Part shown: positions 1-26,566 of the stretch, one piece after another
Layout of the letters: each line of letters starts with the position of its first letter
Position numbering within the stretch: position 1 is the first letter of the stretch
Assembly (NCBI GenBank): GCA_963777155.1
Contig: CAVZPM010000021.1
Coordinates: 1-26,566 of the forward strand
Length of the DNA stretch: 26,566 nucleotides
Reading direction: 5' to 3'
Origin: Candidatus Bathyarchaeota archaeon
GTDB lineage: Archaea; Thermoproteota; Bathyarchaeia; Bathyarchaeales; Bathycorpusculaceae
Notes under the pieces: model-generated
The model's database searches: none
What the model saw: only the letters and a program-made list of their open reading frames with translations
What the model was told of the DNA's origin: nothing
Made by a program: the position numbers and the translations under genes

Positions 1-9
1 TTGGTTAGT

Positions 10-14
10 CCTCC
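10..14 (-). promoter_or_regulatory. Probable Shine-Dalgarno (GGAGG) of a minus-strand gene starting just left of the window
   Basis: The reverse complement of 1-20 reads TTTCTCGGAGGACTAACCAA; GGAGG lies 9 nt from the window edge. Confidence 0.35.
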
Positions 15-215
15 GAGAAAAGAGATGTCTTCTTGCCCTCTGTTGAATAGTTATGCTTTAGTGATCACAAATCTGTGTACTAAGAAGAAGACTGCAAAAA
101 GGTTAAACTATATTCTGAGTATGTATGGCTGCTTCATAATCATCATATATATCGATTATCGCAATACTGCTTATATTGAAATTTAAGGCCATATAGAATT
201 TAGGATGGAAAAGAT

Positions 216-362
216 TTGACGAATCTCTTCAGAAAATTTGAGCGAGGCTTAACGGTTCTAGCGATGGCACCATTAGTTAGCCTTGAAAAGAAAGAAAGCC
301 AAAGACGCATGGAAGAAAGATTAAGGCGTGCTGAAGATAAACTGGCAAGACGAGCAAGATAA
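216..362 (+). CDS. Small charged helical protein, 48 aa (not in ORF track)
   Basis: Manual translation from TTG216: MTNLFRKFERGLTVLAMAPLVSLEKKESQRRMEERLRRAEDKLARRAR*. Alternative ATG at 264. AT-rich TATA-like sequence at about 170-187. The stop lies 10 nt before the next ATG. Confidence 0.5.
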   Translation: MTNLFRKFERGLTVLAMAPLVSLEKKESQRRMEERLRRAEDKLARRAR

Positions 363-372
363 GGGGTCTAAA

Positions 373-558
373 ATGCAAACCATCAAGAGCACAAGGGAAA
401 TTCAAGAAATTCTGAACGACGCGAAAATAGATTTTGATTCAGCGGTTAATGCAGCTCTAAACGCTTATCTGCCCAAATTATTGATGACTTGTCCCTTCAC
501 AGATCAGCCCTGCAGTAAAAAACAATGCAACAACTGCGAATCAGCAAACCAAAAATAA
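373..558 (+). CDS. Small protein, 61 aa, with C-terminal Cys cluster (CPFTDQPCSKKQCNNC)
   Basis: Same frame as track ORF 328..558. ATG373 follows AAGGGG and avoids overlap with 216..362. It has four clustered Cys and an amphipathic helical N-terminal half. Confidence 0.6.
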   Translation: MQTIKSTREIQEILNDAKIDFDSAVNAALNAYLPKLLMTCPFTDQPCSKKQCNNCESANQK

Positions 559-752
559 TTAGTAATAACTTGAAATTATTCTAAGCCTACTTGAATTAAG
601 GCGCTTATTTTTTGGGGTTAAAAAAAGCAATATAGAAACTACAGATTTAGGAATGCACATCTTGGGATTTTTTTCTTGGTTGTTGTATTATGAATGTAGA
701 AGAAGAGCTCTTAAGAAATATTGTATATGTTTTTGAAATTGGAAGAAACTGC

Positions 753-2864
753 TTACTTGAAGAATCTGGAAAGGATGGGTAATGATCTAAATCTGCTATA
801 TTCAGGTGTAAGGCTTCTCCATGCGAATGCAGGTTTGTCCTCCTCATTCACTAAAGTGCGGTCTATTAGTCCTACTTTTTCAGCTTCTTGGAGTTCCAGT
901 TCCATTTGTTCGAGGTCAGTTGAAGAATCTGTGAGTTTGTCTAACTCCTTTGCTATACCTTGTGTGGTTGGGTTGCCCTGTTTTTTGGCGTTCACTACTG
1001 CTCTGATAATTCGCTGTTTCTGCGTTGATAATTTATTGTAAAGAGTCAGTAAGGACATTTTTTCTTGTAAGTTAACGAAGGCTCTATAGAACAAGAGCAC
1101 TACAAGCAACGCAATACTTCCAGCTGATAGAGCTAAGCCGTTTTGGCTAATTGTCAAGGCAATTGTTGTCCAGGTTTTTATGGGCTCCCAGTAATCGTTT
1201 ACAGCTTTCGCAATCGGCAAAAGCAATACTTCTGATTGTGTAACTTCATCCGCAGACTTTGGATACGCAACCAAACTTATTTTCACCTGTTTTTGCTGAG
1301 TTTGATTATTAACGTTAAATGTTGCTGTCTCATACCAGTAGAGGACAACTTGGGTTTGGTTGGTGCTGAGGTATTGGAAAGCAAAGTAGCGTCCGACGAT
1401 GGGTGGGTTGGCTTGGGTTTGGATATCAGTTAGGTCAAGTTGGGTGACTTTTGGTTGGAGTCCCTGGCTTATGGGGTAGTTTATGAGGCAGGTTTCCCAG
1501 CGGTGCAGAGGACCAGTGGTTTGGGCGAGTTCGAGAGCAACCCATATGGTTGGTTTGTTGGGTTCCGTTGAAGCGTAAGCGTAAACTAGGGAGGCGTCTT
1601 CACCTGAAAGCTGTTCAAAACTAGTATCTCGATAAACGTAGCTTAGGTTATAACCATCTATGTTTGGAAGGGGTAGGATTTTGGTGTCTGGTTGAAGCCC
1701 ACTCGGGGTTTGGATGAGGATTTGGGCGGGTCCTTCCGTTAACGCAAAGACTGGTGCTTGGATGCTTAGTAGAAGAGCAATTATTATGCCGATGCTTGCG
1801 ATTTTTGCTATGTCGGCTCGGCTAAGTTTTATTTTTGGCAGTTTGCCTATTTTTCCGCATGTTGGACAGAATTCTATGGTATCCGCAGGCATGGGGTTGC
1901 ATGTTGGGCAGGGTTGTTGGGGTTTGGGTTTTTTGATGAATTTTTCTGTTGTAACTAGAAGGATTAGGGTACCTATGAACATAAGTACCGTGGCGCCTAA
2001 GGCGTGGAAAACTTGGAGTGCCAATTGGTCTCCATAAGCGTTTCCGATCGCAAGTATCGTTGTAATACGTATTATATTTAAGACGATTATGAGCGGTATT
2101 CCAAGTAACAGGATTATGGGTTTACTCCAAAGTTTTCCTCTTGAAATGTAAGCGATAAAGACTGCGAATATAAGAAAGCCGACAAGACTGTAGACGCCCG
2201 AGCAAGCCACGTCTACGCTAAAGTTCATTATCGTTTGGTCGGCTCGTGTGATGGTTATTATTGGGCTGCCGTATTGGGCTGATATCGTGGATGCGATGCC
2301 GAAAACGTTGGCTAAGCCGTTTGAGGCATGGGCGCTTAGGTCGGAGAGGGTTGAACCTACGCTGTAGAGGATCTCGGTAGGTGGCGGTGTGAGGAAGAAT
2401 AGGAAGACGATAGGGAAGATGAGTTGTTTGAGGGTCTGTCCGTTAAAGAGTATTAGAATGAGTCCTGATGCTAAGACGGGTAGGGTAAGCATGTGGTATT
2501 CAATTGGTGTGAAGGTGTATGATCCAAACCAGTAAGCTAAGATGGCTGTTGTACAAAGCAAAACGCCCACAATTGGGGTGAAGTTTTTGGTGAAACTATT
2601 GGAAGCCGTATTAGGGTTGTTTTGACTTAAAGTGGCACTAACCATCTTCCTCTTTCTGTAAAGCAAATATCCAAACAGGACAGGTATCGCTAGAATATGG
2701 TAAGTTGCTTCATCGCTAAGTGCATTAATAAAGATTAAAGTTAAGTCTTGAAAATAAAACGCAATAACTGTTATAGCTATGACTGAAAATTTTATTGCTA
2801 CCGCTATCCTTTGTTGGTCTATTGCCAAATTCATCTTTTCTCTGGTTGGAAGTTTAGGTTGCAT
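753..2864 (-). CDS. Exosortase/archaeosortase-family transpeptidase with Zn-ribbon, EpsI-like and C-terminal wHTH-like domains
   Basis: Multi-TM N-terminal half with exosortase motifs: YHILAIP, FPIVFLFFLTPPP, catalytic VDVACSG (Cys), LNIIRI (Arg) and VFH (His). These are followed by CPTC-x10-CPTC, a TM, an EpsI-like region (LHRWETCL, VLYWY), another TM and a soluble helical tail. Confidence 0.88.
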   Translation of the reverse strand: MQPKLPTREKMNLAIDQQRIAVAIKFSVIAITVIAFYFQDLTLIFINALSDEATYHILAIPVLFGYLLYRKRKMVSATLSQNNPNTASNSFTKNFTPIVGVLLCTTAILAYWFGSYTFTPIEYHMLTLPVLASGLILILFNGQTLKQLIFPIVFLFFLTPPPTEILYSVGSTLSDLSAHASNGLANVFGIASTISAQYGSPIITITRADQTIMNFSVDVACSGVYSLVGFLIFAVFIAYISRGKLWSKPIILLLGIPLIIVLNIIRITTILAIGNAYGDQLALQVFHALGATVLMFIGTLILLVTTEKFIKKPKPQQPCPTCNPMPADTIEFCPTCGKIGKLPKIKLSRADIAKIASIGIIIALLLSIQAPVFALTEGPAQILIQTPSGLQPDTKILPLPNIDGYNLSYVYRDTSFEQLSGEDASLVYAYASTEPNKPTIWVALELAQTTGPLHRWETCLINYPISQGLQPKVTQLDLTDIQTQANPPIVGRYFAFQYLSTNQTQVVLYWYETATFNVNNQTQQKQVKISLVAYPKSADEVTQSEVLLLPIAKAVNDYWEPIKTWTTIALTISQNGLALSAGSIALLVVLLFYRAFVNLQEKMSLLTLYNKLSTQKQRIIRAVVNAKKQGNPTTQGIAKELDKLTDSSTDLEQMELELQEAEKVGLIDRTLVNEEDKPAFAWRSLTPEYSRFRSLPILSRFFK

Positions 2865-2998
2865 GCAACTACACGGTAGCTAGTTAGTTTTTTGGTATCA
2901 CATGGTTATTGGTAAATGTGTTTTTAAATGCATATTGTTTTTTTCGTAATAGAGAGGAAAAAGTGAAATGAGCAGACAACTGTTTAAGACTTAGTTGG

Positions 2999-3787
2999 TT
3001 AAAATCGCTTGGGATTTGGCAGTAGGCTATTTCGTTTCTTGAAGACTACAAAGCTTACTAAACAAGCGGCCAAGGCGGCGAGTGCGCCATAGGAATATTC
3101 TGGAATTACGGTTATATCTCCTCGACATGTTGTTGCTGCACTGCTAGCTTTGTAGTTGTTATCGCCGGCGAAGGCTGCTTTGATTACGTAGACCCCGTTT
3201 GGCAACTTATCGTCGGGGTTCCACTCGAAGCTATACGATCCCTGTGAGTCTGTATTTACAGTTGTAATTGGTTTATCTCCCGTCCCGTAGTTATACATTA
3301 AAATAATGGGCTCAAATGGCACACCTTGCAGGTTGCTTGTGAGTCTTCCAGTTATAGTGGTGATTTGGTTACCGATTTTGTTTACGGTTTTAGGGTAAGC
3401 GCTAACTGTTAGTTGGGTGTCTTTTAGCTTGACAAAGTTTGCCGTTATTGTGCCTGGACCATTGATTGTTGCTGTTGTTGTCGCTTTTAAGGGGTCTGCA
3501 ATTGTTATGGAGCCTGTTTTTGTCCATGATATAAAAGTGTAACTGTCCTTTTTTGCCGCGACGATGTTTATGGTTTGACCGTTATCGTACCAGTTGGTGC
3601 CAGAGGGAGAGGTTGTGCCTGAGTTGTGCGGATTGACTTTGAAGGTAACTTGATAGTGGGTTTTCCAGTTTGCCGTTGCACCAAAAGCCGACTGCACTTC
3701 CATAAACATAAAAGCAGCTAAGACTAAGAAAACTACAGATACGGCTAAGAAACTATGCCTTCTCCTCACATCAATTCCCATTCCCAC
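2999..3787 (-). CDS. Secreted cell-surface protein: InlB-B-repeat-like and Ig-like domains with a PEF-CTERM-like sorting signal (VIPEY-TM-KKR)
   Basis: N-terminal basic and hydrophobic signal peptide. YQVTF...SGTTSPSG..WY..G.....YTFISW...TITANF repeat. Ig-like T...G.YSF.W...G.Y.I.A.FAGD..Y..S region. C-terminus VIPEYSYGALAALAACLVSFVVFKKR. The start could be GTG3787 or ATG3781. Confidence 0.85.
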   Translation of the reverse strand: MGMGIDVRRRHSFLAVSVVFLVLAAFMFMEVQSAFGATANWKTHYQVTFKVNPHNSGTTSPSGTNWYDNGQTINIVAAKKDSYTFISWTKTGSITIADPLKATTTATINGPGTITANFVKLKDTQLTVSAYPKTVNKIGNQITTITGRLTSNLQGVPFEPIILMYNYGTGDKPITTVNTDSQGSYSFEWNPDDKLPNGVYVIKAAFAGDNNYKASSAATTCRGDITVIPEYSYGALAALAACLVSFVVFKKRNSLLPNPKRF

Positions 3788-3993
3788 AATAGGCTAAACT
3801 GATTGCTTATCTTATATTTAATGTACTATAGATTTGTTGGTTGCTTTTTCTATAGTAACTAATGAAATAAGATGTCTTTGAGTTTTTCTGCCATTCTTGT
3901 AGCTACTAATGAATTTTTTGAAGAGCTCAGACCAAACAACGCCAGAACAAAGAAGTGCAAGCACTAATAATTCCAAATCGTGCAGACTGAGAA

Positions 3994-4188
3994 TTATAAA
4001 CCCGTTTTCTTTCGAGTATATTTTCGCTTTTTGATAGTTAATGAGACTTTGTAGGGGAAATATTGCTTTGAAGACTTAATCTTCATGGTGCCTGACTCAC
4101 CCACAAACACCAGTGGATACTCCTGAACTAGAAGCTTCGCGAATTCTGCCAGAGCATTCATAGCCTGAGTAGTCTGATCTTTTTCCAA
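3994..4188 (-). CDS. Small hypothetical protein, 64 aa, with basic C-terminus
   Basis: Fills an intergenic gap divergent from polB. Composition is protein-like (helix, strands, KKRKYTRKK tail). Confidence 0.5.
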   Translation of the reverse strand: MEKDQTTQAMNALAEFAKLLVQEYPLVFVGESGTMKIKSSKQYFPYKVSLTIKKRKYTRKKTGL

Positions 4189-4325
4189 ATCAGAAGATAT
4201 CTATACCACCGCACATCCCTTATTCTCATCAATTCTTAAACATTGTTTTTAATTGTAAAAGAAATAGCAATGCTCGAGTAATTGAGAATCATTAGCAATC
4301 CAAAAGAGTAGGACTCAGATAACAG

Positions 4326-4331
4326 TTTAAA
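4326..4331 (+). promoter_or_regulatory. Candidate TATA box (TTTAAA) for polB
   Basis: TTTAAA lies about 37 nt upstream of GTG4368, with SD-like GGCGGT at 4357-4362. Confidence 0.35.
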
Positions 4332-4367
4332 GACGTTTTTGTATTATGTTTTTTGTGGCGGTTACTG

Positions 4368-6749
4368 GTGAAAATTTCTTTTTGGTTGCTGGACATTAAT
4401 CCCAAAATCGACAAGGACAAGGGCACAATTGAGCTATGGCTTTGGGGAATTGATGGCGCGGGTAATCGAGTCCTTATTGTTGACCGAAACTTTAATGCTT
4501 ACTTCTATGCCGTGGTGACGGAGGGTTTTGATGCCTCGAAGATTGTTGATACCGTCATGAAGGATTTTGGTCAATCAATTGTGAAAGTGAAAGTTGCCCC
4601 TCGTCGATTCTTTGGCAAACCTGTGACAGCAATAAAGGTTTACTGCAAGGTTGCAACTGAAATGGGCAAGGTCGCCAATCAACTTCGAAGCGTCGAAGGG
4701 GTGGCTTTTTGCCTCGAAGATGACTTTCGCGCTGCTATGCGGTACCTTATCGACAGTGGCATAGTTCCCTGCAGCTGGCACGAAGTCGATGTAGAGAGAG
4801 AAGAGAACGTAGGATGTGTGAGGGTTGCTGAGGTTTATGTGGCTAATTCACCGCCTGAACCTCTAGAAAATGTCTCAGTGCCACCTTTGAGGGTTCTGAG
4901 TTTCTCGATGATTTGTTACAGTCGTGAGGGTTCACCCAAACCCGAACGCAATCCTGTGTTAATCATTTCAACCGCAACCAGTAACGGCGAAGAAAAACAA
5001 TTCATCGCAAACGAAGATAGAGACGACAAACCTGTTATCGAAGCTTTCCTCGGTTATATTTGTCAGTTTGACCCAGACATTATCACGAGCTTCGGTGCCA
5101 ACACTGTAGACTGGACATACCTTAAAAGCAGAACCCGCAAACTAAAAATCAAATTGGAATTTGACCGAGCTAAAATGGAACCGCACACCGGCGTCTATGG
5201 CCATATTTCTACAACGGGTATTGCCAATGTCGACTTGGCCGATTTTATGGATGTCTTCCCAGAAGTTAAAGTGAAAACGCTTTGGAATCTTGCGAATCAT
5301 TTAGGCGTTATTAAAGACCAGCAGGATGTTATTGAGGATGTTTTGTTTGCAGATTATTGGGATGACAAGCAGAAACGTCCGTTGCTTTGTCGGTTTGGGA
5401 TGAATAGCGCCTGCAAAGTACAGGGTACCACGTCACTGCTTCTAGATTTTGCGATGCAGCTTGCGAGCTTAACAAGTTTGCCACTGGACCAAGTGATGAC
5501 AGCAGCTACGGGTTTCCGGGTCGAGTGGTTTCTAATCAAGCAGGCACAAAAAGTCGGCGAACTCACACCTAAACGCATCGAGCAACCCTACGTACCTTAT
5601 GCCGGTGGATTGGTTTTATCCCCTAAACCAGGTCTTCATGGAGATATCGCCGTTTTAGACTTCAAATCAATGTACCCAAACATAATGTTAACCTACAATA
5701 TCTCACCTGACACATACATTACACCAGAAGAACCTTCGCCGCCAGAAGGAGTTTTTGAAGCACCAGAGGTAGGGCACAGATTCCGCAGATCTCCGCCTGG
5801 ATTCTACACTGAAGCCCTCACATACCTAATCGGCGTAAGAAACACCATCCGCCAAAAAATGAAGACCATCAAGTTCGACTCTCTGGAATACCATGTGCTA
5901 GATGCAAGACAGAAAGTAGTTAAAATCATCACAAATGCTGCTTATGGTTATGCTGGCTGGATAGGTGCAAGATGGTACCTTAAACCTGTTGCTGAGGCTG
6001 CTTCAGCGTGGGGCAGGTATTCGATTTTAACAGCTGAAAAAATGTCTAAGCAAATTGGAATAGAAGTTGTGTATGGGGACACTGACAGTTTATTCCTCAA
6101 CTATGATCAAGTCAAGATTGAAGAATTAAAAAATCAGATTAAGCAAGAGCTCAAGTTGGATGTAGAAATCGGCGAGGTCTATAAGCGGATTTTCTTTACC
6201 GAAGCTAAGAAACGTTATGCGGGGTTGCGCCAGGATGGTAGCCTCGACATCGTGGGTTTGGAGGTTATTCGCGGCGACTGGGCTGAAGTAGCTAAAAAAG
6301 TACAGGAGCACGTATTAGAAATTATTCTAAAAGAGCAATCAGTAAAAAACGCAGTTGCTTATGTGCGTTCGATCATCACTGAATTGAAACTACATAAAAT
6401 TCCAGTTAAAGACCTAATAATTTGGAAAACGCTCACTAAAGCCCCAGAAGAATACGCTATAAAAGCTCCACATGTGGAAGCCGCAAAAATGCTTAAAGAA
6501 AAAGGCTGGCGCTTAACAAGCGGCGACAAAGTGGGCTATGTAATCCTTGCGGGAAAAGGACGTCTATACAATCGTGTGAAGCCGTATATCTTCGCCAAAT
6601 CCGAAGAAATAGATGTTGATTACTACATAACCAGCCAAGTGCTCCCTGCCGCCTCACGGATACTTGCGTTTTTCGACGTAACAGAAGCAGAATTGTTAAA
6701 AGAAGCTAAAGAAACAAAGGAAATTAGAAGTCTATTGGATTATGTTTAG
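4368..6749 (+). CDS. polB: Family B DNA polymerase (PolB3-like) with degenerate 3'-5' exonuclease motifs
   Basis: Polymerase motifs are intact: LDFKSMYPNI, KIITNAAYGY, YGDTDS, KKRYAG. C-terminal PIP-box-like IRSLLDYV. The ExoI/II/III positions read FSMIC / SFGANTVD / FGMNS. The start is placed at GTG4368 (the track used TTG4353). Confidence 0.95.
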   Translation: MKISFWLLDINPKIDKDKGTIELWLWGIDGAGNRVLIVDRNFNAYFYAVVTEGFDASKIVDTVMKDFGQSIVKVKVAPRRFFGKPVTAIKVYCKVATEMGKVANQLRSVEGVAFCLEDDFRAAMRYLIDSGIVPCSWHEVDVEREENVGCVRVAEVYVANSPPEPLENVSVPPLRVLSFSMICYSREGSPKPERNPVLIISTATSNGEEKQFIANEDRDDKPVIEAFLGYICQFDPDIITSFGANTVDWTYLKSRTRKLKIKLEFDRAKMEPHTGVYGHISTTGIANVDLADFMDVFPEVKVKTLWNLANHLGVIKDQQDVIEDVLFADYWDDKQKRPLLCRFGMNSACKVQGTTSLLLDFAMQLASLTSLPLDQVMTAATGFRVEWFLIKQAQKVGELTPKRIEQPYVPYAGGLVLSPKPGLHGDIAVLDFKSMYPNIMLTYNISPDTYITPEEPSPPEGVFEAPEVGHRFRRSPPGFYTEALTYLIGVRNTIRQKMKTIKFDSLEYHVLDARQKVVKIITNAAYGYAGWIGARWYLKPVAEAASAWGRYSILTAEKMSKQIGIEVVYGDTDSLFLNYDQVKIEELKNQIKQELKLDVEIGEVYKRIFFTEAKKRYAGLRQDGSLDIVGLEVIRGDWAEVAKKVQEHVLEIILKEQSVKNAVAYVRSIITELKLHKIPVKDLIIWKTLTKAPEEYAIKAPHVEAAKMLKEKGWRLTSGDKVGYVILAGKGRLYNRVKPYIFAKSEEIDVDYYITSQVLPAASRILAFFDVTEAELLKEAKETKEIRSLLDYV

Positions 6750-7927
6750 GCGGGTGGTATTGCGTCTTTGAATGTTATCAAATCAACGTTCAATGCGGGT
6801 TTGACTGCTTCGGAGACACGGGAAGCTACGATGCGTTTTATGTTCTTGTCGGCTGCGATGTCAACGATTCGTTGGGTGATGATGCCGTCGAAAACCACTG
6901 TGTTAACGCCCGTTACCTGTGAGAGTTTCTCTGCAAGCTGGCTGACTGGGAGACGTTCGATAAGTTCGAGTTTTTCGTTCAGCAGTACTGCTTCGAGAGT
7001 TCCAACCAGAGCTTTTGCAGCTTGAGTTATTGTGTCGGGGACTTCAATCTTGACACGTTCGGGAACCTGAATCTTCTTTGGAGGCGCTGGTGCTGGAGCC
7101 GGTTTTCCTGCCGCTTCAGAGATGGGCATCTTGTTTTCTATGGCTTCAGAGATTTCTTTGCAGTTGCATTCCTCGATCTCTTTACCCCTTGGAGCGCGAC
7201 CGACAAACTTTACGTTAGTTACTTGAATGAGCTCTTTTAGGATAAGGTCGCCGCCTCGGTCGCCATCAAGCAACGCGGTAGCTATTCGTTCTTTTGTGAT
7301 TTTCTTTATCGAATCAGGGACTTTTGCACCTTCCAAAGCAACAGTGTTAAAGATTCCACAACGCATCAAGTTGATGACATCAGCGCGTCCCTCAACAACA
7401 AAGATTTCTTTGGCGCCCTCCAATCCAGGTCCAGCCGGCAAGTCTTCTGGTCCATATTTTTCTACTTTACCTACTTTCATTGTGTCGCTGATTTCTTTGT
7501 ATACTTCGTCGACGCTTGGCATGGATTCGATATTCCATCGGTGGAGGATTTCTTTGGCGCGGTCAATGATTATTTTTCGGCGTGCCTCGCGAATGTCCTC
7601 AATTTTTTCCAGATTAACTTTTGCGGAACAGGGTCCAACACGGTTAATACTTTCAACGCTTGCAGCAATAAGAGCTGTAGAAACGCGGTCAAGGCTTGTT
7701 GGGATAGTTATTGAACCGTTGGTTCGGTCATTCTTTGAGTGTAGATCGATTTCGATCCTGCCGATACGCCCTGTTTTTTGAAGTTCGCGAAGGTCAAGTT
7801 CTGGACCAAAAAGTCCTTCTGTTTGACCAAAAACTGCTCCAATAACATCGGGTTTTTCAACTACACCTTCAATTTCAAATTTAGCGTGTACAACGTACTT
7901 AATCGTAAATGTTTGGGATGCTCCCGT
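6746..7927 (-). CDS. dnaG: Archaeal DnaG (TOPRIM; exosome-associated primase-like protein), about 393 aa, with a non-canonical start
   Basis: TOPRIM motifs VVEGRADV and DGDRGG. The frame continues without a stop upstream of ATG7522: (T/M)GASQTFTIKYVVHAKFEIEGVVEKPDVIGAVFGQTEGLFGPELDLRELQKTGRIGRIEI...RVGPC, which is the conserved archaeal DnaG N-terminus. The next in-frame stop upstream is TAA at 7972-7970. Confidence 0.93.
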   Translation of the reverse strand, partial: TGASQTFTIKYVVHAKFEIEGVVEKPDVIGAVFGQTEGLFGPELDLRELQKTGRIGRIEIDLHSKNDRTNGSITIPTSLDRVSTALIAASVESINRVGPCSAKVNLEKIEDIREARRKIIIDRAKEILHRWNIESMPSVDEVYKEISDTMKVGKVEKYGPEDLPAGPGLEGAKEIFVVEGRADVINLMRCGIFNTVALEGAKVPDSIKKITKERIATALLDGDRGGDLILKELIQVTNVKFVGRAPRGKEIEECNCKEISEAIENKMPISEAAGKPAPAPAPPKKIQVPERVKIEVPDTITQAAKALVGTLEAVLLNEKLELIERLPVSQLAEKLSQVTGVNTVVFDGIITQRIVDIAADKNIKRIVASRVSEAVKPALNVDLITFKDAIPPA

Positions 7928-7973
7928 AAATATGCACTTCCTATGTGAGTTATGTTCTAATTGATTATGTTAA

Positions 7974-7999
7974 TCGCACTAATGCGAGTTTTTCTCGCA
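7974..7999. repeat. Three alternating TCGCA/TGCGA motifs forming overlapping inverted repeats
   Basis: TCGCA(7974-78) CTAA TGCGAG(7983-88) TTTTT CTCGCA(7994-99). Confidence 0.6.
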
Positions 8000-8221
8000 A
8001 TGATGAGATTTTTAACTTTATTACTGATTTAGAATTTAGTTGCATGCGGTCTAATAATACTTGTGGTTCCAAGATTCACTAGCAATAAAGTTGAATTTTA
8101 TCACTAAGTCCTTAACTGCACTGCCAGTCTACTAAACAATAGTCGCGTTCATATTGCATCCTGAAGTCAACATGACCCTCCAACTTAAATAATAAAACCG
8201 ATAAAGAACTGAGTGGTCCCA

Positions 8222-9028
8222 ATGAGTCTACATATTAATCCTGATTATGACAAATTGCTGCCACAGATGACTGAGGAAGAATTTAGCCAACTCAAAACAT
8301 CCATCCAAACAGAAGGACAACATTACCCCATAATTGTAAACGAAGACCTCGAAGTCTTAGATGGGCATCATCGATTCCGAGCCTGCATCGAACTTGGCTT
8401 AGAACCAGATTTTGAAGTTCGCAAATTCGATGACAAACTTCTGGAAAAAAAGTTCGTTATCGAAGCCAATCTTAGACGACGCCACCTAAACAACTTCCAG
8501 CTAGTAGAATTAGCGGTACCGCTGTTAGAAATCGAGAAAGCACTTGCAAAGAAGCGTCAATCGAAAGGCGGAAAGAACGGCCGGGATATGCAGTTGGGCT
8601 TAGCGTCTGACGACACTGACCCAACCCTTGAGCCAGAGTTCAAGGCAAAAGCCACGGAAGTTGTCGCCAAAAAAGCTGGCGTTTCCACTCGAACTTTTGA
8701 ACGCGGCAAAAAAATCCTCGAGAAAGCCAGCGAAGACGAGAAACAAAAGTTGCGGGAGGGAAAAACGAGTATTTCTAGAGTCTATCAAGAAATCGTTTCC
8801 AGCGAAAACCCGCAACCCAAAAAAGATGAAACTCATGGAATCCTTGGATCAAATGAGTCTCCTCGTGAAGCACAGAATAGAACTGAGTTACTCGCACTTC
8901 TGGACAGGATGATAAAACAAGAAGTGTTTTGCCCCTCATGTGGCAACTCTATGTTTGAATGCAGCAAATGCCACACATCACTAAAGAAACTACTACAATC
9001 TAAAGATGAAGGGGAAAGTGGTGCTTAG
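8222..9028 (+). CDS. ParB/Srx N-terminal-domain protein with HTH and C-terminal Zn-ribbon
   Basis: LKTSIQTEGQHYPIIV...VLDGHHRFRAC (GxxR motif), EANLRRRHL, HTH-like ATEVVAKKAGVSTRTFER, and C-terminal CPSCG-x5-CSKC. ATG8222 is preferred over GTG8213. Confidence 0.85.
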   Translation: MSLHINPDYDKLLPQMTEEEFSQLKTSIQTEGQHYPIIVNEDLEVLDGHHRFRACIELGLEPDFEVRKFDDKLLEKKFVIEANLRRRHLNNFQLVELAVPLLEIEKALAKKRQSKGGKNGRDMQLGLASDDTDPTLEPEFKAKATEVVAKKAGVSTRTFERGKKILEKASEDEKQKLREGKTSISRVYQEIVSSENPQPKKDETHGILGSNESPREAQNRTELLALLDRMIKQEVFCPSCGNSMFECSKCHTSLKKLLQSKDEGESGA

Positions 9029-9042
9029 CAAAACAACATTGA

Positions 9043-9690
9043 TCACTCAAACAGTTGGGTCATTAGACGTTGTTCAGCTTTCCGTAGATGCTCCACCACA
9101 GTAGAGCCTACAAGTCCAAGTCTCTCCGCGAGCTCCTCTGAGGTTATTTTTCTTGGAATATCATAGTAACCCATTTTGTAGGCTGTCATTATAACTTCTC
9201 TCTGTTTCTCAGTTAACCGGTTAAGTGGTGAGATGGGTGAGAAGTTAGCGTCTGCCAACAGAACCACTCTATATCGGATTCCTAACGTATCAATTTTCTC
9301 CATAAAATCTTTAACCTGTTTCTCATTGCCAAGGAAAGATATTTTGATTTTTCCTTCGCCGATTCCTATTGGCGGAAACAGGTAGCCGCTCTCTATACCG
9401 ATAGCGCTCAAGACGGAGGATAAGCTCGGTCCACCTCGCAGAAACACTAGGTATGCTCCGTTTTTTTGTCGCTCCAGTACCTGTGCTTCAACCAAGAACC
9501 CGTCAGTAAGTAAATCTTCAACTTTTGATGTTGAATCTTTAAACACCACTTCTGAAATTGCCGCAAATTCTTGTGGATCCTGCCGCAGAAAATAGATTAG
9601 TTTCAGGGATTTTATTTTTTTAAACTGCGGTAATTCAATTCCAATTTTGATTAGTTCCTTCTCAAAGACCTCAAGTATTAAGCGTCGCAT
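9043..9690 (-). CDS. Bat/HTH-10 family transcriptional regulator
   Basis: The C-terminal LTEKQREVIMTAYKMGYYDIPRKITSEELAERLGLVGSTVVEHLRKAEQRL is the HTH-10 signature. Confidence 0.9.
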   Translation of the reverse strand: MRRLILEVFEKELIKIGIELPQFKKIKSLKLIYFLRQDPQEFAAISEVVFKDSTSKVEDLLTDGFLVEAQVLERQKNGAYLVFLRGGPSLSSVLSAIGIESGYLFPPIGIGEGKIKISFLGNEKQVKDFMEKIDTLGIRYRVVLLADANFSPISPLNRLTEKQREVIMTAYKMGYYDIPRKITSEELAERLGLVGSTVVEHLRKAEQRLMTQLFE

Positions 9691-20725: not shown

Positions 20726-20937
20726 TGCTATCCAAAAAAGAGGTGTGCTAGTATAAATGATTAAGCCTATTCGAAAAATTTTTTGTTGAATTTGGAAACA
20801 GCAACCATAAAGAACCCTAGAATTTCTTTAACAATCCTTTCCCTTTTTTGTTCAAATTGAAGCGCTCAAACGAGGGCTGAGTAGGCTACTGGTTTTCTTA
20901 TATGGATTAGCCTCAGAAACCTTGAGCAACTGAGGAA

Positions 20938-20957
20938 TTCGTAAAATACCGAGTGTA
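20938..20957 (+). promoter_or_regulatory. Degenerate copy of the MMPL upstream motif, upstream of the MFS gene
   Basis: TTCGTAAAATACCGAGTGTA compared with TTCGAAAAGCCGAGTATA (9723-9740). It is followed by TTTTATAA at about 20971-20978. Confidence 0.4.
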
Positions 20958-21015
20958 ACTAAAGCAACATTTTTATAATCCATACATCCTTTAGCCCAAA
21001 AAACTCTTCACTCAG

Positions 21016-22707
21016 ATGACTAAAATTATGGTACAGTACAAATGGGTTGCGCTTTCTAATACGACTCTTGGTATGTTGATGGCTTCAATCGACATGACCA
21101 TAGTTCTGATAGCGATGCCTTCGATTTTTAGAGGCATAAACATCAATCCTTTCACATCATTCCAATATCTACTCTGGGTAATGTTCGGCTACAGCATCGT
21201 GACGGCCACTCTATTGGTTACTTTCGGCAGACTATCTGACATCTATGGAAGAGTCAAACTTTACAATCTGGGTTTTCTCATATTCACTATCGGCTCAATT
21301 CTGTTGTTTTTAACACCCAATACAGGAGACGCAGGAGCCATTGAGTTAATAGTGTTCCGAATCATCCAAGGAGTGGGCGCCGCATTCCTCTTCTCAAACA
21401 GCGGAGCCATTATAACCGACGCTTTTCCCGAGAACGAACGCGGAAAAGCATTAGGAATAAATCAGTTAGCTTTTCTGGCTGGCTCATTAATCGGATTGAT
21501 TCTAGGCGGTGTTTTGGCGGTTTATGATTGGCGTTTGGTCTTCTTAGTCAGCGTTCCAGTCGGTATCATCGGCACAGCTTGGTCATATTGGAAACTAAAA
21601 GAACAACACATTCAAAGAAAGAAGCAAAAACTTGACGTTTGGGGAAACATCAGTTTCGGAGGCGGCTTAACACTAGTTTTACTATCTATAACTTACGGCT
21701 TAACACCCTACGGCAACTCTCCAATGGGCTGGAGCAACCCCTGGGTCATTTCTTCATTAATCACTGGCGTCGGTTTGCTAGTAGCATTTCCATTCATCGA
21801 ACGCAAAGTGCCAGACCCCATGTTCAAACTTGATCTATTTAAGAACAGAACCTTCGCCGCAGGAAACATCGCAACTTTCCTAAGCGCAATGTCCAGAGGT
21901 GGAGTCATGATAATGCTTGTAGTGCTCTTGCAGGGTATCTGGCTGCCCCTTCAAGGATACAGCTACGATTCTGCTCCGTTTTGGGCTGGAATCTTCATGA
22001 TCCCCATGTCGATAGGCATAGCTATTACTGGTCCTCTAAGTGGCTGGTTATCAGACAAACATGGCGCACGAATCCTAGCCACTTCGGGCATGATAATAAC
22101 CGCCATTGCCTTCTTAGCGTTCACTCTTCTGCCAGCCAATTTCGGTTATTTTCCTTTTGCAATAATTCTCTTAGTCATGGGGATCGGAAATGGAATATTT
22201 ATGTCCCCTAACATGGCTTCAGTGATGAATTCTTGTCCAGCTGAACACCGTGGCGCCGCTTCAGGCATGCGCTCCACTCTGCAAAACTGCGGACAAACCA
22301 TTAGTCAAGCTATTTTCTTCAGCATAATCATCATCTCACTAAACGCAACCCTGCCAACGGCGCTTTCGACCGCAGTGGCGAGTACAGGTGCTTCACCACA
22401 AGTTGCAGCCGCATTCAGCCATACACCAGCAGCTGGAGCACTCTTTGCAGCTTTCCTCGGCTACAACCCCATCGGAACATTGCTTCAAACTATGAACCCA
22501 ACTTTGGTTGCAGCATTATCCCAACATACAGTAACCGTTCTGGAAGGACAAACTTTCTTCCCCAACGCAATCGCCTCACCATTCATGAACGCGCTGACAA
22601 TCGCCTTCATAATTGCAGCTGTTCTCTGCGTCATGGCAGCTGTATTTTCAGCCCTAAGAAGCGAAAAAGACGTTAATAAAAAAATAAGAGTACAAGGCAG
22701 TCTCTAA
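21016..22707 (+). CDS. MFS transporter, DHA2 (EmrB/QacA-like, 14 TM)
   Basis: D.TIV.IA.P, GRLSDIYGR (motif A), FRIIQGVG, ERGKALG, WRLVFLV.VPVG and GWLSDKHGAR. Confidence 0.92.
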   Translation: MTKIMVQYKWVALSNTTLGMLMASIDMTIVLIAMPSIFRGININPFTSFQYLLWVMFGYSIVTATLLVTFGRLSDIYGRVKLYNLGFLIFTIGSILLFLTPNTGDAGAIELIVFRIIQGVGAAFLFSNSGAIITDAFPENERGKALGINQLAFLAGSLIGLILGGVLAVYDWRLVFLVSVPVGIIGTAWSYWKLKEQHIQRKKQKLDVWGNISFGGGLTLVLLSITYGLTPYGNSPMGWSNPWVISSLITGVGLLVAFPFIERKVPDPMFKLDLFKNRTFAAGNIATFLSAMSRGGVMIMLVVLLQGIWLPLQGYSYDSAPFWAGIFMIPMSIGIAITGPLSGWLSDKHGARILATSGMIITAIAFLAFTLLPANFGYFPFAIILLVMGIGNGIFMSPNMASVMNSCPAEHRGAASGMRSTLQNCGQTISQAIFFSIIIISLNATLPTALSTAVASTGASPQVAAAFSHTPAAGALFAAFLGYNPIGTLLQTMNPTLVAALSQHTVTVLEGQTFFPNAIASPFMNALTIAFIIAAVLCVMAAVFSALRSEKDVNKKIRVQGSL

Positions 22708-22730
22708 TTAAAACGCTTGAGTTATTTGGT

Positions 22731-25172
22731 TTATTTGCGGTTTCTTTTAGAAATTAGCGCCAATAAAAGTGTTGAAACGATAAGTAGCATAATAATAATC
22801 TGAATGTTTAATTCTGGCACTTGAGGTGTCACGGAAGGTTCAGGAGTATGTGTTGGGATATTCAACGGTGAGGGTGTAGGTGTTTGAGTTGGTGTTTGGG
22901 TTGGATTTGGTGTTGTACTTGCTGTTGAGACTAATGGGCTCAGTGAAGGGGTTGATGTTTCAAGAGTGACCGAGCAACTATATGTTGATATTAAACCTGC
23001 ATTATCCATAAATTGAACAAAAATGCTTTTTATTCCATCCCCACCTTCCAGAGGCCATTCTTTTGAAACCCCATATGGTTCCCAACTTGACCAGTTGCTA
23101 TTATCGTTGGCAAAGCGGATCTGTGCAACTCCTGAAACACCATCGCTTGCATTCAAACTAAGCGTAATGTTCGGGTTGTCAACGATGACTCCGCTGGGTG
23201 TTATTGAGCCTGTTGGAGCAGTTTTGTCCAGTTTTATTCCTATCAAAGTTACGTGTGGAAGCTCCATTGTACTTGTTCCGTCAGGACTCCATGTACTCCA
23301 GTACTCAAGGGTGTTGTTGCTGCCCTCAGTTGTTATAGTGGGTTGTCCATTACTGGAAACGTTGAATGTGGCGCCGCCGTTTATTCTGTAGAACGTTTCG
23401 TTCACTCCATAGTCAGGTGTCAAGGTCAAGTTAACATCGGATGTTTGCCAGGAATCGGTGAAATTGTTTGCAACGATTGGCAAACGAGTTAGGTTAATAC
23501 AAAAATCAGAACTGTTATCCCTGATTACTAGAGTGTGTTGTCCGGGAGTTGTTGTTGGCACTTGCAAGGTTGTATTAAAGAACCCGGTTTCGTCCGTTAG
23601 AACTGTGCCTAAATTGACTTCACCATCCCAAAATAGCGAAATATTGCCCGGGCTAAACCATTTCCCGCTGATAGGTAAAGAATCGCCGTTTTGGACAAAA
23701 ATGTTCAATGCCAAATTCGTGTCATTACCGTATAATCCTTGGGCAGTTAAGTTGCCTATTTGAGCTATACCTCTACGCCATTCCGAGTATGGAATGGCAG
23801 TTTTGTATGAGCGCCCGTTGCTATTGTCTGTAACGTTAAATGTAATCGTATCAAATTGTTGCGGGTTGTCTCCTGCTATGTTGTTCTGTAACAGATCTGG
23901 GGCGCTAATGGGAAAAGAGAATTCATTTGCAGATATTGTAAAGTTGTTGAATAGTGAAACCCAAGAGGTATTGATTGAGTTTCGATAGGAAATGTTTACT
24001 GAACTCCCTGGGATAAAGCCTACACCATTGATTGTTAACAAACCACCTGGAGGACCATACGTTGGAGAAACGGTAACTTCAGTCCCAAAATTAATTGTCA
24101 AAGGACTCCCCAAACCGGTCACCAAGTCGTAACCTGAGGTTGCGGAATTAACATGGTTAGATCCCGAAGTTATGTCTCGAAAATAGGTAGAATATGCCGA
24201 TAGTGCTCTACCGTAAAGGTTAGAGTTGGTAACGGAGAGTCCGAGAGCATGAATTGCAGCCCACTGAGGTGCACCTGCGCTCGTACCACCTACTTTCCAC
24301 CATGTACCATTGTAAACAGAGACACCAGTTGTAGCATTTCCGTTGTAAGAAACATCTGGAACAGCACGTTTAGCGTAGGCAAGTCCAAAGTTAGTTTGGA
24401 AATTAGGTCTGGTTACATAGCTGCTTACCCCACCGCTACTATCATACCAAGATAGCTCAGAAATTACTGTTCCATCGGAGTTAAGATTAAGCGTTGTCCC
24501 CCCAACACTAACCACGTTTGCTGAAACCGCTGGCCAAAACACTTTCGAACCGTCGTCACCTGAAGAGGCAAAAAAAGTGATGCCGGGTTTATTGAAATGA
24601 TAATCAAAATTTGCTTCGTTGAAGAATTCATCACCACCCCAACTCATTGAAACTGCAACTACGCCCGGCTGGTTTGCGGCATAATCGACGGCTGAAAAAA
24701 GGGCAAAATCAGTTGGATTAACGGCTTCCACAAGAAGTATTGTTGCGTTGGGAGCTATGGCATGAGCCCATTCAACATCTAGACAGGTTTCCATGGCCCA
24801 ATTGCCATCGGTTTGCATATTTTGTGACATCTTATGGACTATGAAATTGCCGGTACTGTTGTCCGGGAGATTATATTGATTAGAAAATGAGTTATAGTAA
24901 GTCAGTATGTTTGGTGTGTCATAGGCGTCAATTATGGCGATGGTTGTTCCATTGCCGCCTGAAGATGGCAGGTTATAGGCTGTTCTTATCTGGCTTGGAG
25001 TATAGCCTATTGGAGTTAAAGATCCTGAAAAAGGTGAAATATACATTGGGTGTGCGGTCCAGTCTGAGGGGGACTGGTTAGAAGTGTTTGCGCTTTGTAT
25101 CTGGGCAAAGCTGCCTACAATAAATAATATAATAGTAGTGAATACGAACAATCTTTTGCCTATTTGGTACAC
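22731..25172 (-). CDS. Secreted S53 (sedolisin-like) serine peptidase with Ig-like domains, a Pro/Thr linker and a VPEL-TM-basic sorting signal
   Basis: Signal peptide. ETCLDVE (Glu/Asp), SSGDDG, VPDVS, VGGTSAGAP (Ser) and Ca-site GYDLVTGLGSP. The tail reads TPTQTPTPSP...QVPELNIQIIIMLLIVSTLLLALISKRNRK. Confidence 0.9.
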   Translation of the reverse strand: MYQIGKRLFVFTTIILFIVGSFAQIQSANTSNQSPSDWTAHPMYISPFSGSLTPIGYTPSQIRTAYNLPSSGGNGTTIAIIDAYDTPNILTYYNSFSNQYNLPDNSTGNFIVHKMSQNMQTDGNWAMETCLDVEWAHAIAPNATILLVEAVNPTDFALFSAVDYAANQPGVVAVSMSWGGDEFFNEANFDYHFNKPGITFFASSGDDGSKVFWPAVSANVVSVGGTTLNLNSDGTVISELSWYDSSGGVSSYVTRPNFQTNFGLAYAKRAVPDVSYNGNATTGVSVYNGTWWKVGGTSAGAPQWAAIHALGLSVTNSNLYGRALSAYSTYFRDITSGSNHVNSATSGYDLVTGLGSPLTINFGTEVTVSPTYGPPGGLLTINGVGFIPGSSVNISYRNSINTSWVSLFNNFTISANEFSFPISAPDLLQNNIAGDNPQQFDTITFNVTDNSNGRSYKTAIPYSEWRRGIAQIGNLTAQGLYGNDTNLALNIFVQNGDSLPISGKWFSPGNISLFWDGEVNLGTVLTDETGFFNTTLQVPTTTPGQHTLVIRDNSSDFCINLTRLPIVANNFTDSWQTSDVNLTLTPDYGVNETFYRINGGATFNVSSNGQPTITTEGSNNTLEYWSTWSPDGTSTMELPHVTLIGIKLDKTAPTGSITPSGVIVDNPNITLSLNASDGVSGVAQIRFANDNSNWSSWEPYGVSKEWPLEGGDGIKSIFVQFMDNAGLISTYSCSVTLETSTPSLSPLVSTASTTPNPTQTPTQTPTPSPLNIPTHTPEPSVTPQVPELNIQIIIMLLIVSTLLLALISKRNRK

Positions 25173-25330
25173 TTCTCTCAGCTAACACCTCTAGGTAGGG
25201 ATATCCTGTTTATTATGATATCAGTATCTCTATTTCAATATATACACCTTACTGCAACCGCATCTGTCTGTCTTTTTAAAGGACAAACGATATAGCCCTA
25301 CACTTAACAACACTAAGGTAGTGAAATAAA

Positions 25331-26559
25331 TTGTCTATGCAAAAATCGTATTCACGTTTACTTGGCGTAATTGGAAAACCAAACACGGGAAAATCCACTT
25401 TCTTTAGCGCTGCAACTCTAGCGGCTGTGGAAATCGCCAATTACCCCTTCACCACCATTAAGCCAAACCGAGGAGTCGGCTACGTCCGAACCAAATGCGT
25501 CCACGAAGACTTTAAGGTGCAGGACAATCCCCGAAACAGCCTCTGCATAGACGGTGCGCGCCTGGTCCCAGTGGAATTAGTCGACATAGCAGGCATCGTT
25601 CCAGGCGCCTGGGAAGGACGCGGTTTAGGTAACCAGTTCCTCGACGAAATCCGCCGAGCAGACGCCCTCATCCACGTTGTTGACGCTTCGGGCGGAACCG
25701 ACTGCGAAGGAAAAAGCTGCAAACCCGGCGAACACGACCCCTTAGAAGACATAAAGTTCCTTGAACGCGAAATAACCATGTGGATGGTAACTATCATAAA
25801 GAAAGATTGGTCAAAAATCCTAGAACCGCTGAAGCCGACAAAAAAGGCATCGCTCACCATCTTGAAGACCGCTTATCAGGGTTAAGCATAAAACGCCAAT
25901 TCATCAGCGAAGCCGCTCGGCGCGCAAACTTGAACATTGAGGCCCCAGCCTCCTGGACAGATGATGATTTCTACCGTTTCATAGACAACTTACGGAGAAT
26001 ATCTAAGCCGCTGCTTATTGTAGCCAATAAGATAGATTTGCCAACCGCCCAAGCAAATGTTGAAAGAATGAAAAAACTCGACTACATCGTTATCCCATGT
26101 TCTGCAGAAGCTGAGTTGGTACTAAGACGAGCAGCGGAGAAACAGCTGATTGATTACAAACCAGGCGACAAAGACTTCAAAATAACGCATCCGGAAAAGC
26201 TGTCGGCAGGTCAGATTAAGGCGCTTGAACAAGTAAAAGAAAAAATACTCAAAACAAACGGATCCTCGGGCGTTCAAGAAGCCCTAAACACTGCATACTT
26301 CAAACTCTTAGATATGATAACCATCTACCCAGTCGAAGACTTAGAGCATTTATCCGACTACAACGGACGGGTTCTTCCCGATGCGTACTTAGTCCCCAAA
26401 GGCACTACTGCCCACCTATTCGCATATATAATCCACAGTGAACTTGGCGAAAGCTTTCTCTATGCCGTAGACGCTCGAGACAAAAGGCGAATCGGCGAAG
26501 ATGCTATCCTAAAAGACCGAGACGTAATATCGATTGTTAGCGCTAAGAAACGCAATTAA
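25331..26559 (+). pseudogene. ychF: Archaeal YchF/OBG-family translation-associated NTPase, split by a 1-nt frameshift at about 25820 (pseudogene or assembly error)
   Basis: The first frame has GKPNTGKST, NYPFTT, DIAG...[13 protein letters not shown] and IHVVD. The second frame has KPLLIVANKID, SAEAE and the TGS-domain VLPDAYLV..GTT...FA..IH. The junction reads TCA AAA ATC CT AGA ACC GCT. Confidence 0.88.
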
Positions 26560-26566
26560 CCTTTAG

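Follow-up and report, generated by a model that had tools for sequence, protein, structure and literature searches.

Replaced proofreading residues and an intact polymerase site in PolB3 of Bathyarchaeia and related archaea

The polB3 gene and its active-site motifs

We examined a stretch of 26,566 nucleotides from a Candidatus Bathyarchaeota archaeon (GenBank assembly GCA_963777155.1, contig CAVZPM010000021.1, which is C21 in our numbering; hereafter the window), which encodes a family-B DNA polymerase of the PolB3 type in which most of the 3'-5' exonuclease catalytic residues are replaced and the polymerase motifs are intact. The genome to which the window belongs comprises 2.29 Mb in 39 contigs and is 90.6% complete with 3.8% contamination. 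The polB3 frame and the motifs discussed below are as follows.

4353..6749, plus strand: polB3 gene, an uninterrupted frame of 798 amino acids (aa) from TTG
4887..4922, plus strand: ExoI remnant LRVLSFSMICYS, residues 179-190, with Asp185 replaced by Ser and Glu187 by Ile relative to the Pyrobaculum calidifontis PolB3 structure (PDB 5mdn)
5088..5111, plus strand: ExoII remnant SFGANTVD, residues 246-253, with Asn248 replaced by Gly and Phe252 by Val, and Asp253 kept
5391..5411, plus strand: ExoIII remnant RFGMNSA, residues 347-353, with Tyr348 replaced by Phe and Asp352 by Ser
5658..5681, plus strand: polymerase motif A, DFKSMYPN (Asp436 and steric-gate Tyr441), canonical
5922..5948, plus strand: polymerase motif B, KIITNAAYG (Lys524 and Asn528), canonical
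6072..6089, plus strand: polymerase motif C, YGDTDS (catalytic Asp576 and Asp578), canonical
6207..6224, plus strand: primer-terminus motif KKRYAG (Lys620 and Tyr622), canonical
6723..6746, plus strand: C-terminal tail IRSLLDYV, resembling a PCNA-interacting peptide (PIP) and recognized by its conservation in homologues

The gene product matches the Pfam families DNA_pol_B (expectation value, E, 2.1e-62) and DNA_pol_B_exo1 (2.4e-20), and its top solved relative is P. calidifontis PolB3, with which it is collinear over residues 10-796 (E 1.9e-217). Weaker structure matches were found to Thermococcales PolB (approximately 1e-100) and to S. solfataricus PolB1 (1s5j; 8.1e-40), and the nearest relatives carry Bathyarchaeota or Bathyarchaeia titles. 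To describe close homologues, we used a set of 121 proteins, made up of the window protein plus its top 120 matches out of 1993 (68-99% identical). The N-termini of homologues read MK/VK(V/I)(S/T)FWLLD and their lengths are mostly 790-794 aa (793 aa in 40/121), which points to the GTG at 4368 as the probable start and to a protein of 793 aa. From the match to 5mdn and from the placement inside PolB3 and the convergent dnaG neighbour described below, we conclude that the gene is a PolB3 orthologue in which the proofreading residues are the only PolB3 hallmark that is missing.

The carboxylates of ExoI, ExoII and ExoIII are needed for two-metal exonuclease catalysis, as is illustrated by exo-minus archaeal enzymes of the D141A/E143A type. 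In a residue-by-residue alignment with 5mdn, the ExoI segment lrvlafdievyn pairs with LRVLSFSMICYS, such that D-I-E becomes S-M-I. The ExoII segment vgynsngfdw pairs with TSFGANTVDW, which replaces Tyr with Phe, Asn with Gly and Phe with Val and retains the Asp, and the ExoIII segment mryvlddvrs pairs with CRFGMNSACK, which replaces Tyr with Phe and the two Asp residues with Asn and Ser. Three of the four metal-binding carboxylates are thereby replaced, along with the ExoIII Tyr and the ExoII Asn, and only the ExoII Asp (Asp253) stays. Read in order, the six proofreading positions (ExoI DxE, ExoII Nx2-3(F/Y)D and ExoIII Yx3D) are Ser, Ile, Gly, Asp, Phe and Ser, from which exonuclease activity would be absent in this enzyme. 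An earlier note on this DNA, made from the letters alone, had described a PolB3 with substituted exonuclease carboxylates and intact polymerase motifs, and each part of that description holds: the match to 5mdn is full-length, the Exo strings that it quoted sit where it had placed them, and the polymerase motifs (A, B, C and KKRY) have canonical sequences.

The same substitutions are fixed among close homologues. Neither the ExoI Asp, the ExoI Glu nor the ExoIII Asp occurs in any of the 121 proteins (0/121 each); the ExoI Asp position is occupied by Ser in 118, Asn in two and Phe in one, and the ExoI Glu position by Ile in 111, Val in seven, Leu in two and Met in one. Residue 248, the site of the ExoII Asn, is Gly in 120/121, the ExoIII Tyr is replaced by Phe in 120/121, and Asp253 is kept in 116/121. 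The polymerase residues show the opposite state, with the Asp and Tyr of motif A, the Lys and Asn of motif B, both Asp residues of motif C and the Lys and Tyr of KKRY each present in 121/121; Asp436 and Tyr441 of motif A are also invariant in a separate alignment of 58 sequences. Because the exonuclease substitutions are fixed in all 121 close homologues and throughout the PolB3 subclade described below, and the same or similar changes appear in independent assemblies from many sources, they are not sequencing errors, as the earlier note had argued.

A PIP consensus is a C-terminal peptide of the type Qxx(L/I/M)xx(F/Y)(F/Y/L). The tail IRSLLDYV has the L..YV spacing of such a box and is missing its Gln, and the pattern [SN]-L-[MLTI]-D-[YF]-[VLIF] closes 116 of the 121 proteins. 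This conservation fits a PIP-like peptide and suggests that the tail is a putative PCNA anchor. Within the N-terminal domain, the positions that correspond to uracil-pocket residues in the 5mdn alignment were not conserved, even in 5mdn itself.

We also modelled the protein with AlphaFold2 on the 58-sequence alignment. The model has a mean predicted local distance difference test (pLDDT) score of 91.9 and a predicted template modelling (TM) score of 0.88, and only residues 786-798 fall below a pLDDT of 50, which suggests that the C-terminal tail is disordered. A Foldseek search with the model gave TM scores of 0.83/0.86 to 5mdn and approximately 0.85/0.90 to the 9°N and KOD polymerases.

Extent and constraint of the exonuclease substitutions

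The earlier note had proposed mapping the loss on a phylogeny, which we did in several samples of PolB3. For a cluster survey, we took one representative per 50%-identity cluster, combined the window protein with the best 150 representatives and aligned the 103 of these 151 proteins that have 700-900 aa; one intein-bearing protein (P0157) was then dropped to give a tree of 102 rows. In this tree, 78 rows are exonuclease-intact and 24 have lost the site, and the window protein lies in a group of 15 in which every member is lost (FastTree SH-like support 99). This group adjoins intact representatives, including one from Sulfolobaceae. Look-ups of individual clusters placed Culexarchaeum nevadense and a metagenome-assembled genome (MAG) of Nitrososphaerota in the lost group as well.

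A second survey covered 80 loci from named genomes, of which 75 could be scored; the remaining five gave the wrong longest open reading frame (ORF; L045 and L104) or had the exonuclease region missing (L065, L094 and L102). Thirty-three loci are lost, including every one of the 23 scored rows with Bathyarchaeota, Bathyarchaeia or Bathyarchaeales in the title. Further lost rows bear the titles Methanomethylicia (L062), Thaumarchaeota (L097), Nitrososphaerales (L098), Geothermarchaeota (L105), 'Methanobacteriota' (L064) and Thermoproteota (L059), and a row titled 'Thermoprotei archaeon' (L110) sits beside the Geothermarchaeota row. Three lost rows have bacterial titles (L040, L054 and L093), which are probably binning errors. 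The other 42 loci are intact and all keep DxE...D...YxxxD. Among them are all rows that bear the title of a Thermoprotei order, along with the euryarchaeal rows, a Sifarchaeum row and one row from Methanomethylicia (L071).

Trees of hand-picked subsets of 55-56 rows gave a similar picture. In a quick LG+G4 tree of 56 rows, the 32 lost rows around the window protein form one side of a branch with a Shimodaira-Hasegawa-like approximate likelihood ratio test (SH-aLRT) support of 91, and in a tree that also held PolB2 and took PolB1 as its outgroup, a group of 23 lost rows has support of 81. Across four trees, the window protein falls in an all-lost group whose neighbours are intact crenarchaeal PolB3. 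These sequence trees are most simply read as one ancient loss, though this is not firmly shown, as support for it ranges from 22 to 99 among them. The earlier note had regarded the altered exonuclease site as particular to this gene, whereas the state is old and lineage-wide and the gene itself is often absent from Bathyarchaeia.

Throughout the wider lost clade, no row has the ExoI Glu or the ExoIII Asp. Some sublineages still have the ExoI Asp, the ExoII Asp or the ExoIII Tyr, and the replacement residues vary from one sublineage to another, which is the pattern that would be expected after inactivation rather than from a rebuilt site. Nor did we detect a compensating carboxylate at the sequence level, as no acidic residue is shared clade-wide except those that are conserved in intact enzymes too. 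Among the positions that are strict in intact PolB3 and changed in the lost clade, nearly all belong to the exonuclease site (187, 248, 252, 352, 355 and 356), and those outside it are R108, A123, R324, I332, P365 and N407.

The remainder of the exonuclease domain has been retained. In the Bathyarchaeia core, pairs of sequences are on average 58% identical in the exonuclease domain and 67% identical in the polymerase domain, and the ratio of exonuclease to polymerase divergence is 1.27 in this core versus 1.17 in intact crenarchaeal PolB3. Five residues between ExoII and ExoIII (R260, G283, H284, S286 and G289) are invariant or nearly so across the 15 lost representatives; the stretch that they span is one that we take to be a beta-hairpin. 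On these sequence comparisons, the exonuclease domain is constrained rather than decaying.

Two further observations concern exonuclease loss elsewhere in PolB3. A second, independent exo-lost group (cluster representatives P0168, P0169, P0172, P0174 and P0187) adjoins an intact representative of euryarchaeal type; its titled members are MAGs of Thermoplasmatota, and two of its proteins have YADTDG as motif C. The 'Methanobacteriota archaeon' from groundwater that carries L064 (G230) has two family-B frames of PolB3 size, 806 and 795 aa. The L064 protein keeps the ExoI Asp and the ExoII Asp, has Lys in place of the ExoI Glu and Gln/Glu in ExoIII, and branches first within the lost group in the 56-row and PolB1-outgroup trees.

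Other polymerases, genomic context and neighbouring genes

In response to a check that the earlier note had suggested, we surveyed the polymerases of the window's genome. It encodes a PolB1 of 921 aa with intact DIE, FNGDDFD, YCMRD and YGDTDS motifs, both PolD subunits (DP1 and DP2) and a Y-family polymerase. Neither PolB2 nor a second intact PolB3 was found in this genome, in which the only other PolB3 sequence is a decayed 3' fragment on contig C8.

We then searched 201 sampled Bathyarchaeia genomes with the window protein as query (E<=1e-100), treating genomes of at least 90% completeness and at most 5% contamination as high-quality. A PolB3 orthologue was found in 124/201 genomes and in 114/172 high-quality genomes. 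By family, occurrence ranges from empty or nearly so (0/12 in f7, 3/34 in f21 and 1/6 in f6) to full or nearly so (8/8 in f15 and 17/18 in f11). Among the 24 other genomes of the same genus, polB3 is uninterrupted in 14, interrupted in four (G001, G012, G020 and G023) and cut by a contig end in one, and the remaining five, with completeness of 58-97%, gave no PolB3-type match. No orthologue was found in 58/172 high-quality genomes; therefore, the gene is dispensable in Bathyarchaeia. This patchy occurrence fits the genetics of Sulfolobus, where the accessible text of published studies describes PolB3 as non-essential in S. islandicus and S. acidocaldarius, with deletion sensitizing cells to some DNA-damaging agents and with functional overlap between PolB3 and PolB2. 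In several of the surveyed genomes (G140, G120, G192, G183, G055, G156, G162 and others), an otherwise full-length match to polB3 contains one or two in-frame stops (TAG, TAA or TGA), which may reflect genuine interruptions, reading through the terminal stop or errors of assembly.

With a Bathyarchaeia PolB2 as query, PolB2 (HGIVDS) was found in 73/201 genomes. Cross-tabulation at the thresholds used placed both polymerases in 51 genomes, PolB3 only in 73, PolB2 only in 22 and neither in 55. A complementary distribution of the two enzymes was considered and rejected (odds ratio 1.75, p 0.10, in a sample in which kin are not independent). For PolD, DP2 was found in the hosts of the exo-lost loci L062 and L064, as in the window's genome, and was not found in the hosts of exo-lost L097 and L105 or of exo-intact L071, genomes that may be incomplete.

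PolB2 is distinct from the window protein in both motif and descent. Bathyarchaeia PolB2 has H[GA]IVDS as motif C, with a single Asp, and has no ExoI, whereas motif C of the window protein is the canonical YGDTDS, in keeping with the contrast that the earlier note had drawn with PolB2. In a quick LG+G4 tree built without bootstrap, the PolB3 branch (42 rows, including the window protein) has an SH-aLRT support of 100, and PolB2 and PolB1 lie outside it. We also considered whether PolB2 derives from the exo-dead PolB3 clade, an idea prompted by PMC11791011, and found no support for it, as the tree puts PolB2 outside all PolB3. In the accessible text of the same study (Venclovas-lab 2025, PMC11791011), some basal TACK PolB2 proteins retain an intact DxD and have an exonuclease domain that is less decayed; these proteins had been chosen for their iRadA/PPB2 operons. 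None of the 15 scanned window ORFs had a RadA-like Pfam match. No PPB2-like neighbour was seen in the window, where only small unsupported ORFs lie upstream of polB3, although no PPB2 model was searched. Three short family-B polymerases of approximately 635-660 aa from other Bathyarchaeia (L131, L132 and L133, from G034, G030 and G039) carry DFESLYP and YGDTDS and group with PolB1.

The neighbour of polB3 on its 3' side is a primase-like gene.

6746..7903, minus strand: dnaG (Toprim primase-like), identified by Toprim Pfam matches, convergent with polB3 and overlapping its stop codon

The stop-to-stop frame of dnaG extends over 6746..7969 (407 open codons) and contains no ATG, GTG or TTG before Met150. 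Relatives align from a residue that is coded by ATT at 7903-7901 (I-K-Y-V-V-H-A-K-F-E-I-E-G), which suggests either an ATT start codon or a sequence error. A convergent dnaG lies beside polB3 at 25 of the 33 exo-lost loci and at 20 other loci scanned, mostly from Thermoprotei, and the arrangement is described for crenarchaeal polB3 in the accessible text of Makarova 2014 (PMC4104785).

Part of the window recurs elsewhere in the same MAG. The end of contig C8 (50562-59774, corresponding to L117 5563-14775) is a rearranged second copy of window 6025-9337 and 20935-26566. One part of it (5.6 kb) matches window 26566-20935 at 97.8% identity, and another (3.3 kb) matches window 9337-6025, which holds a parB-like gene, dnaG and the last 725 nucleotides of polB3, at 87.9% identity with 41 gap openings and many stops. 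The copy is without window 9.3-20.9 kb, save for a piece of 350 nucleotides, and C8 terminates within the polB3 remnant, with no second copy of window 1-6024. Either a segmental duplication with one copy decaying or the binning of two strains together would account for this. At the other end of the window, an Obg/YchF-like GTPase (MMR_HSR1, YGR210-like G4 and TGS domains) is split into overlapping plus-strand frames at 25331..25885 and 25780..26559, and its C8 copy is a single frame of 411 aa, which is the opposite of the polB3 and dnaG case. An 813-aa minus-strand ORF at 22731..25172, within the part duplicated at 97.8% identity, has no Pfam match at E<=0.001. Other window genes encode an exosortase, an MMPL transporter, FrhB-like and GltD-like proteins, a fusion of peroxiredoxin and cytidylate kinase and an MFS transporter, and the window is ordinary chromosome.

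Proposed role of PolB3 and comparison with known polymerases

We propose that an old PolB3 subclade, comprising members from Bathyarchaeia, Culexarchaeum/Methanomethylicia-type and Nitrososphaerota/Geothermarchaeota-type lineages and related MAGs, had its 3'-5' exonuclease active site destroyed, with the fold of the exonuclease domain and the polymerase active site kept under purifying selection. The window enzyme would then most likely polymerize DNA without editing its own errors, probably tethered to PCNA through its conserved tail, and would serve as a dispensable accessory in tasks such as repair gap filling, extension from mismatched or damaged termini or possibly strand displacement at downstream 5' ends, leaving bulk proofread replication to PolD, through the DP1 exonuclease, and to the exo-intact PolB1. 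We hold this account of an accessory, PCNA-tethered, non-proofreading enzyme to be probable, with moderate confidence. The data show the PolB3 identity, the replaced catalytic residues, the conserved polymerase residues, the retained fold, the distribution across the clade, the dispensability of the gene and the set of polymerases in the genome, whereas the lack of exonuclease activity, the binding of PCNA and the task in the cell are inferred. The cellular role is drawn by analogy from what exo-minus family-B enzymes are known to do and from the genetics of Sulfolobus PolB3, as are the roles that the earlier note had put forward (low fidelity, lesion bypass, Okazaki maturation, strand displacement and mutagenesis). 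The lineage-wide loss and the frequent absence of the gene fit an accessory enzyme better than a special fidelity strategy. A bolder version appears rather unlikely: PolB3 may have become a dedicated non-proofreading polymerase through one ancient change at the root of a large TACK assemblage outside the crenarchaea (Bathyarchaeia, Culexarchaeia and Geothermarchaeota/Nitrososphaerota-like lineages), with the constrained exonuclease domain serving to handle primer ends during mismatch or lesion extension or strand displacement. If true, archaea would have an equivalent of the eukaryotic split in which exo-dead Pol alpha and Pol zeta stand beside proofreading replicases.

Several results weigh against the account that we favour. 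For every member of the clade, the loss of exonuclease activity is read from sequence. When the three motif regions were taken out and a site-heterogeneous model was applied, the 32 lost rows still fell on one side of a branch, with an SH-aLRT support of only 22. PolB2 and PolB3 show no complementary distribution, and their occurrence thus gives no support for a shared translesion-extender niche. Nor does a general link between exonuclease loss and possession of PolD hold, as the occurrence of DP2 in the host genomes above supports no rule. Finally, the replacement motifs FS[MIL]ICYS, GANTVD and FG[LM][DN]SA are well conserved in the Bathyarchaeia core and the ExoII Asp is present in 116/121 close homologues, which leaves room for residual or altered activity of the pocket.

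That last observation is also the starting point for another explanation, in which the pocket was repurposed as a non-canonical nuclease or as a site of primer-end binding or sensing built around the ExoII Asp and the new Ser, Cys and Asn residues. Such a function would account for the conserved replacement motifs, for Asp253, for an exonuclease domain that diverges only slightly faster relative to the polymerase domain than in intact PolB3 (1.27 vs 1.17) and for the near-invariance of R260, G283, H284, S286 and G289 across the lost clade. In the wider clade, however, the six catalytic positions differ and are mostly hydrophobic or basic, Asp253 is often replaced and no new acidic residue appears clade-wide, and conservation within the core would also be expected from structural constraint; we therefore consider repurposing improbable. 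We give similarly little credence to PolB3 as the main replicative polymerase, with its errors corrected in trans by the DP1 subunit of PolD or by another nuclease. The perfectly conserved polymerase motifs and the conserved PIP-like tail would suit a replicase, DP1 and DP2 are encoded in the genome, and replicative roles have been assigned to PolB3-type enzymes in some archaea (Kazlauskas 2020, accessible text). A replicase would nonetheless be hard to reconcile with the 58/172 high-quality genomes in which PolB3 was not found, with families that are nearly empty, with interrupted copies in four of the 24 genus relatives and with an exo-intact PolB1 and PolD in the same genome, and crenarchaeal PolB3 is reported as non-essential in the accessible genetic literature.

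The dnaG neighbour raises the idea of a Pol alpha-like enzyme, a non-proofreading extender of primers made by a primase, possibly by the tail-to-tail DnaG. An exo-dead, polymerase-active architecture is shared with Pol alpha (Kazlauskas 2020, accessible text), and the convergent, overlapping arrangement is kept at 25/33 lost loci. Yet dnaG is also found beside exo-intact crenarchaeal PolB3 (the 20 loci above; also Makarova 2014, as far as its accessible text goes), and for this reason the neighbourhood is not linked to exonuclease loss. The two genes are moreover convergent rather than co-transcribed, the protein ends in a PIP-like tail instead of a Cys-rich C-terminal domain and the gene is dispensable, which together make a Pol alpha-like role somewhat less credible than either explanation in the preceding paragraph. 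Least plausible of all, and to our minds very improbable, is that the gene is decaying or catalytically inert, or that the substitutions are assembly errors. Interrupted copies do occur in some relatives, and a decayed second 3' end lies on C8 of the same MAG, but the 798-aa frame of the window gene is unbroken, the polymerase catalytic residues are present in 121/121 homologues, the structural model is confident (mean pLDDT 91.9) and like substitutions recur in independent assemblies.

We found no description of an exo-dead, polymerase-intact PolB3 subclade in the literature, although one may be visible in the motif logos and tables that supplement Kazlauskas 2020 and Makarova 2014. The accessible text of Makarova 2014, Kazlauskas 2020, PMC12680538, preprint 10.1101/235028, Raymann 2014 and PMC11791011 mentions no such clade, and a literature search for prior mention, as the earlier note had recommended, found none. 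Exo-dead B-family enzymes as such are already known, namely Pol alpha, Pol zeta, PolB2 and the C-terminal half of Pol epsilon (Kazlauskas 2020, accessible text); what we did not find described is a subclade of this kind within PolB3. It is not a new kind of system, and the role of the enzyme is putative. The finding indicates that the specialization of B-family polymerases through loss of proofreading occurred also inside archaeal B3, with the polymerase site untouched, and it qualifies the usual textbook picture, in which PolB3 proofreads. In sediment and soil, Bathyarchaeia rank among the most abundant archaea, and their replication and repair enzymes are known from sequence alone. The patchy retention of PolB3 in this group gives a way to ask which polymerases are required alongside PolD and PolB1, and the lost clade is a defined natural exo-minus set for comparison with exo-plus sisters, which may interest enzyme engineers.

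The window enzyme resembles several known polymerases in part. Like Pol alpha and Pol zeta, it would combine an inactivated exonuclease domain with an active polymerase and specialized synthesis (Kazlauskas 2020, accessible text). The likeness is an analogy only, as the window protein belongs to the archaeal B3 clade and has neither a Cys-rich C-terminal domain nor known accessory subunits. With archaeal PolB2/Dpo2 it shares membership of family B, a non-functional exonuclease site, an accessory character and a patchy distribution, and it differs from that translesion extender, which has iRadA and PPB2 as partners, in its motif C, in its operon context and in that PolB2 branches outside PolB3. 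The closest parallel is crenarchaeal PolB3 (5mdn and Dpo3 of Sulfolobales), which is collinear with the window protein, 44% identical to it in the Foldseek alignment and its sister group in the trees, and which has the same order of N-terminal, exonuclease and polymerase domains, the same motif A, B and C variants and a convergent dnaG; unlike the window protein, it has the ExoI Asp and Glu, the ExoII Asn and the ExoIII Tyr and Asp. In engineered exo-minus Pfu, Vent and 9°N polymerases of the D141A/E143A type, both ExoI carboxylates are removed and the polymerase is unchanged. The window PolB3 shares with these enzymes the loss of the ExoI carboxylates in an otherwise unchanged polymerase, whereas its own loss is natural and ancient and extends to the ExoIII Tyr and Asp and the ExoII Asn.

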